Virus record (IMG/VR): IMGVR_UViG_3300037851_000865
Span: 93,232-157,231 of that record
Length of the DNA: 64,000 bases
Source: a virus
Strand: one strand, 5' to 3'
Part shown: positions 60,999 through 61,247 of the stretch, piece after piece
Numbering within the stretch: the first letter of the stretch is position 1
How the letters are laid out: every line of letters starts with the position of its first letter
Translations under genes and position numbers: made by a program
Notes under the pieces: model-generated
What the model was told of the DNA's origin: nothing
The model's database searches: none
Seen by the model: the letters and a program-made list of their open reading frames with translations, nothing else

Positions 60999-61059
60999 GT
61001 GTTGACTCCAGGAGCGTTATCGCTCATGCGCAACAGGAATTGCACCGCTAAAGAAAAGT

Positions 61060-61212
61060 GTCCACCCGGTGAGCCGACACTCGGGTACACGCGAGGCGTG
61101 CGAACCAGGGAAGGCCTTCCCCCAACCCTTCTGAGGGCTGTGTTGGTTCCGAGTAGAGCCCTAAGGCAACACCCTTCGCCGAGAGCAGAAAGCTCGGACC
61201 CACCGAGTGGAC
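61060..61212 (-). ncRNA. 153-nt multibranched structured RNA, family unknown
   Basis: 14-bp terminal helix GUCCACUCGGUGGG/CUCACCGGGUGGAC; G-U pairs favour the minus strand; own promoter; U-rich TAGC end. Confidence 0.75.
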
Positions 61213-61218
61213 CCGAGC

Positions 61219-61247
61219 AGTCTGCTGTCAGCCGTTGTACGAGTCAA
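61219..61247 (-). promoter_or_regulatory. sigma70-type promoter of the 153-nt RNA
   Basis: TTGACT-N17-CAGACT, 6 nt before the first paired G. Confidence 0.65.

Follow-up and report, generated by a model that had tools for sequence, protein, structure and literature searches.

The window, by which we mean the whole 64,000-nt stretch of DNA analyzed here, comprises bases 93232-157231 of a 175,761-bp phage record from IMG/VR, with a CheckV completeness of 94% and a G+C content of about 56%. Within it two minus-strand genes, coding for proteins of 88 and 190 amino acids, are separated by a gap of 229 nt that is occupied by the RNA element described below (Table 1). Neither flanking gene matched Pfam or PHROG. 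The 190-aa product gave a confident structural model (pLDDT 88.5); comparison with the PDB yielded no match by sequence and no fold match with Foldseek, a wide structural aligner returned Z scores of at most 3.3, and there was a weak likeness to the uncharacterized DUF7352 phage proteins, which offers no hint as to the role of the RNA. Together with its relatives (P0002-P0033) it constitutes a family of 150-210 aa with a conserved GGGPPGF motif. A search of 185,579 bacterial and archaeal species genomes recovered no member of this family, and no prophage copy or host was found. In the window, about 2.5 kb separate the RNA from a tmRNA/tRNA cluster.

Table 1. Features of the RNA locus, in the order of minus-strand transcription, and related signals elsewhere, all in window coordinates
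Feature	Position	Strand	Remark
Upstream gene, 88 aa	61228-61494	-	5' neighbor of the RNA
-35 hexamer TTGACT	61242-61247	-	inside last codons of upstream gene
-10 hexamer CAGACT	61219-61224	-	17-nt spacer; 6 nt before first paired G of P1
H5 hairpin, 12 bp, loop UCG	61192-61218	-	top terminator-like site of the region
P1, 5' strand	61194-61212	-	14 bp, bulged U, 4 bp
Pseudoknot 5' strand, linker UUCUG	61186-61190	-	also part of U-run after H5
P2, 5' strand CUCGG	61179-61183	-	by homology; assignment ambiguous in window
Three-way junction P3/Ha/Hb	61102-61149	-	RNAfold, covariance model, pair counts
P3, GAACC/GGUUC	61149-61145 with 61106-61102	-	RNAfold and homologues
Ha, CAGCCCU/AGGGUUG	61140-61123	-	RNAfold and homologues
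Pseudoknot 3' strand, CAGAA	61129-61133	-	in and next to Ha loop
Hb, GGGGAA/UUCCCU	61122-61107	-	RNAfold and homologues
Hb apex GGCC, 4-nt palindrome	61113-61116	-	self-complementary in homologues
P4 hairpin, GCACGC/GCGUGU	61087-61101	-	G.U closing pair, then single A
P2, 3' strand CCGAGUG	61078-61084	-	conserved
P1, 3' strand	61060-61077	-	pairs with P1 5' strand
U-rich tail ending TAGC, RNA-gene terminator	61047-61059	-	genome terminator pattern
Phage-type promoter TGCAAT, 17 nt, GATAAC	61016-61044	-	serves 190-aa gene, outside RNA
Downstream gene, 190 aa	60426-60998	-	adjoins RNA in 11/11 loci with DNA
Phage-type promoter motif, first bases	3193, 3569, 17002, 36026, 40873, 49447, 57586, 58385, 61044, 62789		
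Other terminators, examples	57597, 56918, 45833, 40016, 35677	-	
Other terminators, examples	31704/31739	both	

Searches at the nucleotide level recovered no close counterpart of the gap: it had no match among 50,697 phage records, a search with 8 kb of DNA returned only short matches in an RNase H/DnaQ-like gene. Close relatives of the two flanking proteins were absent from IMG/VR. The first relative of the downstream 190-aa protein, at 53% identity, is encoded on contig L002, which displays a gap of 259 nt at the same place; both ends of this gap can be aligned with the window, and its middle has diverged, apparently with compensatory changes. Two tRNA genes occur on the minus strand of L002 (620-690 and 775-848), about 2 kb upstream of the RNA, echoing the tmRNA/tRNA cluster close to the RNA in the window. 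With both flanking proteins as queries, a full HMMER search yielded about 30 distant relatives, and these, along with one IMG/VR contig, supplied the further loci (L015, L016/L017, L018, L019, L020, L021, L022, L023 and L025). A homologue search had been proposed in the earlier note; the RNA element is found in all 11 distinct loci for which DNA is at hand, namely the window and ten metagenome homologues, with compensatory changes beyond every control, and the neighboring proteins of the 190-aa family are only 29-52% identical across these loci. On two more contigs, for which DNA is lacking, the corresponding gaps measure 265 and 288 nt. As all 11 loci are syntenic relatives, the constant linkage to the downstream gene may reflect ancestry rather than function.

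No reading frame inside the RNA is conserved among the homologues. A 51-aa frame at 61048-61203 was rejected as a gene: it shares only approximately its first 13 residues with the frames of the homologues, and these are accounted for by conserved RNA bases. The element of L015 was found by a covariance model inside a gene call, and the calls that overlap the RNA there (L015:732-950) and in L022 (L022:1906-2335) are probably spurious frames in GC-rich RNA-coding DNA.

Promoter, terminator and adjacent phage-type promoter

On the minus strand TTGACT and CAGACT are separated by 17 nt, as the earlier note had claimed, and this geometry is fixed in the nine loci that were tabulated. Each of the nine has, at a constant offset from P1 (the helix that joins both RNA ends), a -10 hexamer of the form NANNNT, with A as its second and T as its sixth base, and a -35-like hexamer with T as its first base is found at the same offset in each of them. 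The spacer is 17 nt, except for 16 in L016, and the gap from the -10 to the first paired G of P1 is 6 nt, except for 5 in L018. L015 and L025 fit this geometry by eye, the -10 of L025 being without the final T. The predicted promoter thus keeps a constant spacing to the RNA 5' end, as expected of a stand-alone small-RNA gene. CAGACT is weak against the E. coli standard, and an automated promoter scan did not call the RNA promoter. In the window and L002 the -35 hexamer overlaps conserved codons, which makes its conservation in those two loci ambiguous; in several loci it lies outside coding sequence, and hence coding constraint does not explain its conservation. Judged by its sequence, the putative RNA promoter is of the sigma-70 type. 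A host-type RNA polymerase would be expected to start at about 61212 and to release the transcript within the U-run, around 61057-61050, so that the RNA would measure roughly 155-165 nt; the transcript, its start and its ends are predictions. The same holds for the +1 that the earlier note had set at the first base of the closing helix.

The U-rich end closing in TAGC, likewise proposed earlier, is present and conforms to the genome's own terminator pattern. The genome contains 25 matches to TTTCTTTAGC with one mismatch, about a dozen of which come after a hairpin and mark terminators; these take the form of a GC-rich hairpin and then TTTCT(C/T)TAGC (examples in Table 1). A terminator-like tail, from a U-run to TAGC(C), follows the helix in every homologue, as expected of an intrinsic terminator. 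The TAGC after the U-run is itself conserved, which plain termination does not explain. Elsewhere in the genome, about 3.2 kb past the end of the window on the plus strand (record positions 160427-160522), TTGACG, 17 nt and CACTCT are followed, about 50-60 nt after CACTCT, by a hairpin and TTTCTTTAGC; this looks like a further tiny promoter-to-terminator RNA unit near the tRNA cluster. At about 57500-57600 on the minus strand of the window a terminator precedes TGCAATTCC, the promoter start also seen beside the RNA element. That region also includes a long, nearly perfect inverted repeat, A/G- and U/C-rich, right after the -10-like element, which could be a leader hairpin or an operator.

Just past the terminator is a promoter of a different kind, TGCAAT and GATAAC, which is conserved in the homologues. 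Its class has 13 genomic members, most of them immediately ahead of genes, where shuffled sequence gives 3.3, and the motif can be written as (C/T)GCAA(A/T), about 17 nt, and (G/C/T)ATAAG, often followed by AA. It probably represents a phage-specific class, perhaps middle or late, distinct from the host-type promoters before RNA genes. Given the position of this promoter between the terminator and the 190-aa gene, the downstream gene has a promoter of its own, different from that of the RNA.

Predicted fold and covariation

The 14-bp closing helix described in the earlier note is present (61212-61199 with 61073-61060, the ends 153 nt apart) and extends through a 1-nt bulge and four more pairs to 18 bp. 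This helix, P1, would join the two ends of the RNA, and it is outermost in the minimum-energy structure of each of the 11 sequences when folding begins at the predicted +1. Among the homologues, where it likewise joins both RNA ends, it measures 15-23 bp; in L018 it is weak. Four of the six outer columns of P1 have compensatory changes in the hand alignment. Folded from the predicted start, the RNA attains z = -4.2 as a closed multibranched structure; with flanks included the values are -3.3 for the RNA strand and -2.5 for the opposite strand.

Within P1 a second helix, P2, is predicted to enclose a multi-way junction. Its 3' strand is conserved, in keeping with the UACUCGG/CCGAGUG helix of the earlier note, and it is the 5' strand of that helix which is in doubt. 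The minimum-energy fold pairs the 3' strand with an identical copy at 61149-61155; in five other homologues, however, the partner comes straight after the linker that follows P1, so that in the window it may be the CUCGG at 61183-61179 instead of 61155-61149. As the two copies are identical, the assignment of P2 stays ambiguous. A hairpin formed by CCGAG and CUCGG, which had also been put forward, is not conserved in the homologues.

The conserved core inside P2 and a variable branch is predicted to be a three-way junction followed by P4. In the junction a short A-rich linker leads from P3 to Ha, on which Hb stacks directly, and RNAfold predicts this arrangement separately in eight sequences. 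These four helices correspond to the GAACCA/UGGUUC, CAGCCCU/AGGGUUG, GGGAAGG/CCUUCCC and CACGC/GCGUG pairings of the earlier note, all of which RNAfold recovers and all of which are conserved. P4, with its G.U closing pair and single A, is found in six of the 11 loci (the window, L002, L020, L021, L018 and L025), with stem sequences that differ and a layout that is the same; the other five have a larger extra domain in its place. G.U pairs are conserved in P1, in Ha and at the base of P4, and they are possible on the transcribed strand only, which bears out the strand-specific wobble pairs noticed at the outset.

Two additional features concern the loops. The linker directly after the 5' strand of P1 is U/C-rich and complementary to the loop of Ha, and UUCUG is predicted to pair with that loop in a pseudoknot. 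Linker and loop change together (UUCUG with CAGAA, UUCCU with AGGAA, UUCCC with GGGAA), and the last two combinations separate sequences that are otherwise very similar. At least five Watson-Crick pairs can form in eight of the 11 sequences and four in two more; L018 has no pseudoknot at the usual place. Shuffled linkers reached the observed level in none of 5000 trials; when the linkers were instead exchanged between sequences, 17 of 5000 trials did so. At its apex Hb has GGCC, GCGC or GUAC among the homologues, self-complementary without exception, with coordinated changes of the two central bases (GC, CG, UA). Since adjacent bases of a single tetraloop cannot pair with each other, this covariation may most simply be read as pairing from copy to copy.

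Covariation was evaluated in two alignments. The first was built by hand from the single-sequence folds, one helix after another, and so was fitted to the structure from the outset; 231 of its 232 cells pair, compensatory changes occur in 20 of 29 columns, and none of 2000 shuffles reached 231 (mean 178, sd 4.2). The second was produced by a covariance model of the three-way junction, seeded with a plain MAFFT alignment and then used to realign all sites. This model scored the 11 true sites at 38-52 bits and everything else in 111 kb at 20.5 bits or less, and it finds a single copy in the phage genome. Its alignment has changes on both sides in 13 of 16 pairs, and the covariation score of 0.418 compares with 0.186 for shuffled alignments, none of 500 shuffles reaching it, and with at most 0.196 when the partners were slid; the proportion of paired cells is only 77%, a consequence of mixed registers in the seed alignment. 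Rebuilding the model once more gave no better register, and with the MAFFT junction alignments out of register RNAalifold recovers only part of the junction. A covariance model made from the window junction alone found L018 only, and a scan of IMG/VR with the core pattern of subgroup B returned only the L023 contig, which was already known. A 19/20 repeat of part of Hb at 41426-41445 of the window was set aside as a chance match in coding DNA; the RNA is not a repeat.

Comparison of these sequences leads us to propose that the locus quite likely encodes, as a gene in its own right, a stable non-coding RNA with a compact fold that belongs to an undescribed family.

Overlap with a probable upstream terminator

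The 5' strand of P1 and a few bases upstream of it can also fold on themselves into a hairpin, H5, which a U-run (61191-61186) abuts directly. This overlap with an upstream terminator, like the pseudoknot and the palindromic apex of Hb, did not figure in the earlier note. H5 is found in most homologues, with 6-12 bp, compensatory changes and a U-run directly after it; the pair at its base, G-C in the window, is A-U in L002. It is probably the intrinsic terminator of the upstream operon, and transcripts reading through from the upstream gene would stop at H5 and its U-run. In such read-through RNA of full length the two conformers, one with H5 and one with P1, are energetically close, with -94.9 against -85.9 kcal/mol in the window and -102.6 against -106.5 in L002; folding from the predicted +1 favors P1. 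About six bases, the lower portion of the left arm of H5, lie upstream of that start. The RNA's own transcripts would miss it and have unpaired bases between a short stem and the U-run, and we infer that they would read past the H5 site and later close into P1. L020 is without H5 and has an ordinary terminator about 27 nt upstream, with promoter and P1 kept. Scans of IMG/VR and JGI metagenomes with H5 hairpin patterns gave only chance matches in coding DNA.

A simple intrinsic terminator, which H5 alone would fit, was rejected as an account of the whole element, in which about 130 further nucleotides carry the conserved junction and the pseudoknot. A broader version of this idea is that the element acts purely in cis as a boundary, a double terminator or insulator or a stabilizer of mRNA 3' ends with no role in trans. 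It draws on the standing of H5 and its U-run as the best terminator-like site in the region, on the second terminator-like end that follows, on the location exactly between the end of a gene and the phage-type promoter, and on the closeness in energy of the H5/H3 hairpin conformer to the P1 form. We nevertheless hold it to be unlikely: a terminator needs neither a promoter at a fixed distance nor a three-way junction, a covarying pseudoknot or a palindromic apex, the other terminators of this phage genome are simple hairpins, and L020 keeps the whole RNA despite its ordinary terminator upstream.

Relation to known RNAs and possible roles

The element could instead be a riboswitch-like leader of the 190-aa gene, in which a ligand decides whether P1 and its U-run terminate transcription. 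Like riboswitch aptamers it combines a closing helix, a junction, a tertiary pseudoknot from loop to linker and a U-run directly after P1, it has two alternative conformers, and it precedes the same gene family in 11 of 11 loci. Unlike riboswitches, it seems to have its own promoter and terminator, and the recurring phage-type promoter between that terminator and the gene is separate from both. Moreover, a helix abuts the final U-run in both conformers, so that there is no obvious anti-terminator, and the variable branches differ greatly in size among the homologues, which would be unusual around a ligand pocket; we find this reading improbable. A still smaller chance attaches to the conserved features being a DNA signal, with the palindromes and hairpins serving as sites for proteins or for single-stranded DNA, for instance in replication or packaging. 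Hb is indeed a perfect 14-16-nt palindrome in several homologues, and H5 is a near-palindrome with almost the same sequence in the window as in L002. But the stems change freely with pairing kept, which fits a folded strand and not a protein site, the conserved G.U pairs work on the transcribed strand only, and a promoter and a terminator bracket the element. That GC-rich spacer DNA folds well by chance, as the z of -2.5 for the opposite strand might suggest, is next to impossible to reconcile with compensatory changes across 11 loci whose neighboring proteins have diverged so far, and with every control being exceeded.

The stand-alone RNA gene that we favor has no match among known families. 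Only two tRNAs reached the gathering score when the whole window was searched against Rfam 15; the region 60900-61350 gave four chance-level matches of 12-16 bits at E <= 10, and seven homologous loci gave nothing on the element at E <= 1. The earlier note had assigned the RNA to no family and had seen no signature of RNase P, SRP, tRNA or rod-like 6S RNA; the Rfam searches and the multibranched fold concur with it on both counts. 6S RNA was considered and set aside on the same grounds, the present fold being multibranched with a three-way junction instead of rod-like. Judged against Rfam, and leaving aside the 10,006 candidate viral RNAs catalogued in PMC10690425, the family is new within the orphan structured phage RNAs.

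Several described systems have points in common with it. Y RNA/YrlA shares the long end-to-end stem, the variable inner part and the U-rich 3' end; the present RNA differs in having no tRNA-like T-arm and no Rfam match. A partnership with a phage Ro60 was rejected after a TROVE search that gave matches in control genomes and none in the 176-kb record; a host Ro60 is possible. The stable RNAs C and D of T4, of about 120-140 nt, are encoded near tRNA genes and processed from a tRNA transcript; to our knowledge their function is still unknown. By description they resemble the present RNA in being phage-encoded close to tRNA genes, and differ in that the present RNA apparently has a promoter and a terminator of its own. 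The phi29 pRNA, of about 120-170 nt, has its own promoter, a helix that brings its 5' and 3' termini together, a three-way junction at its center and loop pairing between copies. Our element appears to share the first three of these features, but the pRNA loops are complementary to each other whereas the apex of Hb is palindromic, and a 176-kb phage stands against the small phi29-like phages, with no link to packaging seen. An RNA of the phi29 pRNA type was rejected, as the Rfam scans contained no pRNA match and the record measures 175,761 bp.

ROOL and GOLLD have sizes of roughly 580 and 800 nt. The present RNA, at 155-230 nt, has a different architecture and no sequence or model match to them, and self-association is here a prediction. 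It nonetheless resembles ROOL, GOLLD and manA in appearing to be a free-standing gene for a structured, pseudoknotted phage RNA, often near tRNA genes (PMC12286853, PMC2864571). ROOL, GOLLD and OLE assemble into homo-oligomers (PMC12286853), and RNAs are known to homodimerize by palindromic pairing (PMC12990946, which also mentions pRNA oligomers); both would fit a palindromic apex of Hb.

A long conserved single strand, which antisense pairing would call for, is absent, and this speaks against an antisense regulator. Conserved loops, a pseudoknot and a palindromic apex suggest instead that the RNA works through its shape; its partner may be a protein of the host or the phage, and it might bind it as a symmetric dimer. 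Our best guess is hence a stable RNA that binds protein or pairs with itself rather than an antisense regulator. More tentatively, and by analogy, we posit that it could be a small homodimer or oligomer, a miniature counterpart of ROOL and GOLLD, perhaps serving as a protein decoy or scaffold in early infection, or else a new sensor or catalytic fold; we rate this proposal as a minority possibility.

The nesting of a promoter and an RNA 5' end inside the probable terminator of the preceding operon makes for a compact gene arrangement, and if the promoter is indeed set within that terminator such that the RNA's own transcripts escape termination, this would be a second new point. Even if the element were only a boundary, it would be an unusually elaborate one. 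The family is also a practical one, being small enough for structural and mutational work, with clear signals, a covarying pseudoknot and a loop seemingly built for self-pairing. RNA-only assemblies have recently been found, and if this RNA dimerizes or binds a host factor, that finding would come to include a far smaller molecule. Structured RNAs are numerous in phage genomes, and every family with good support opens a way into phage biology that is still unexplored.
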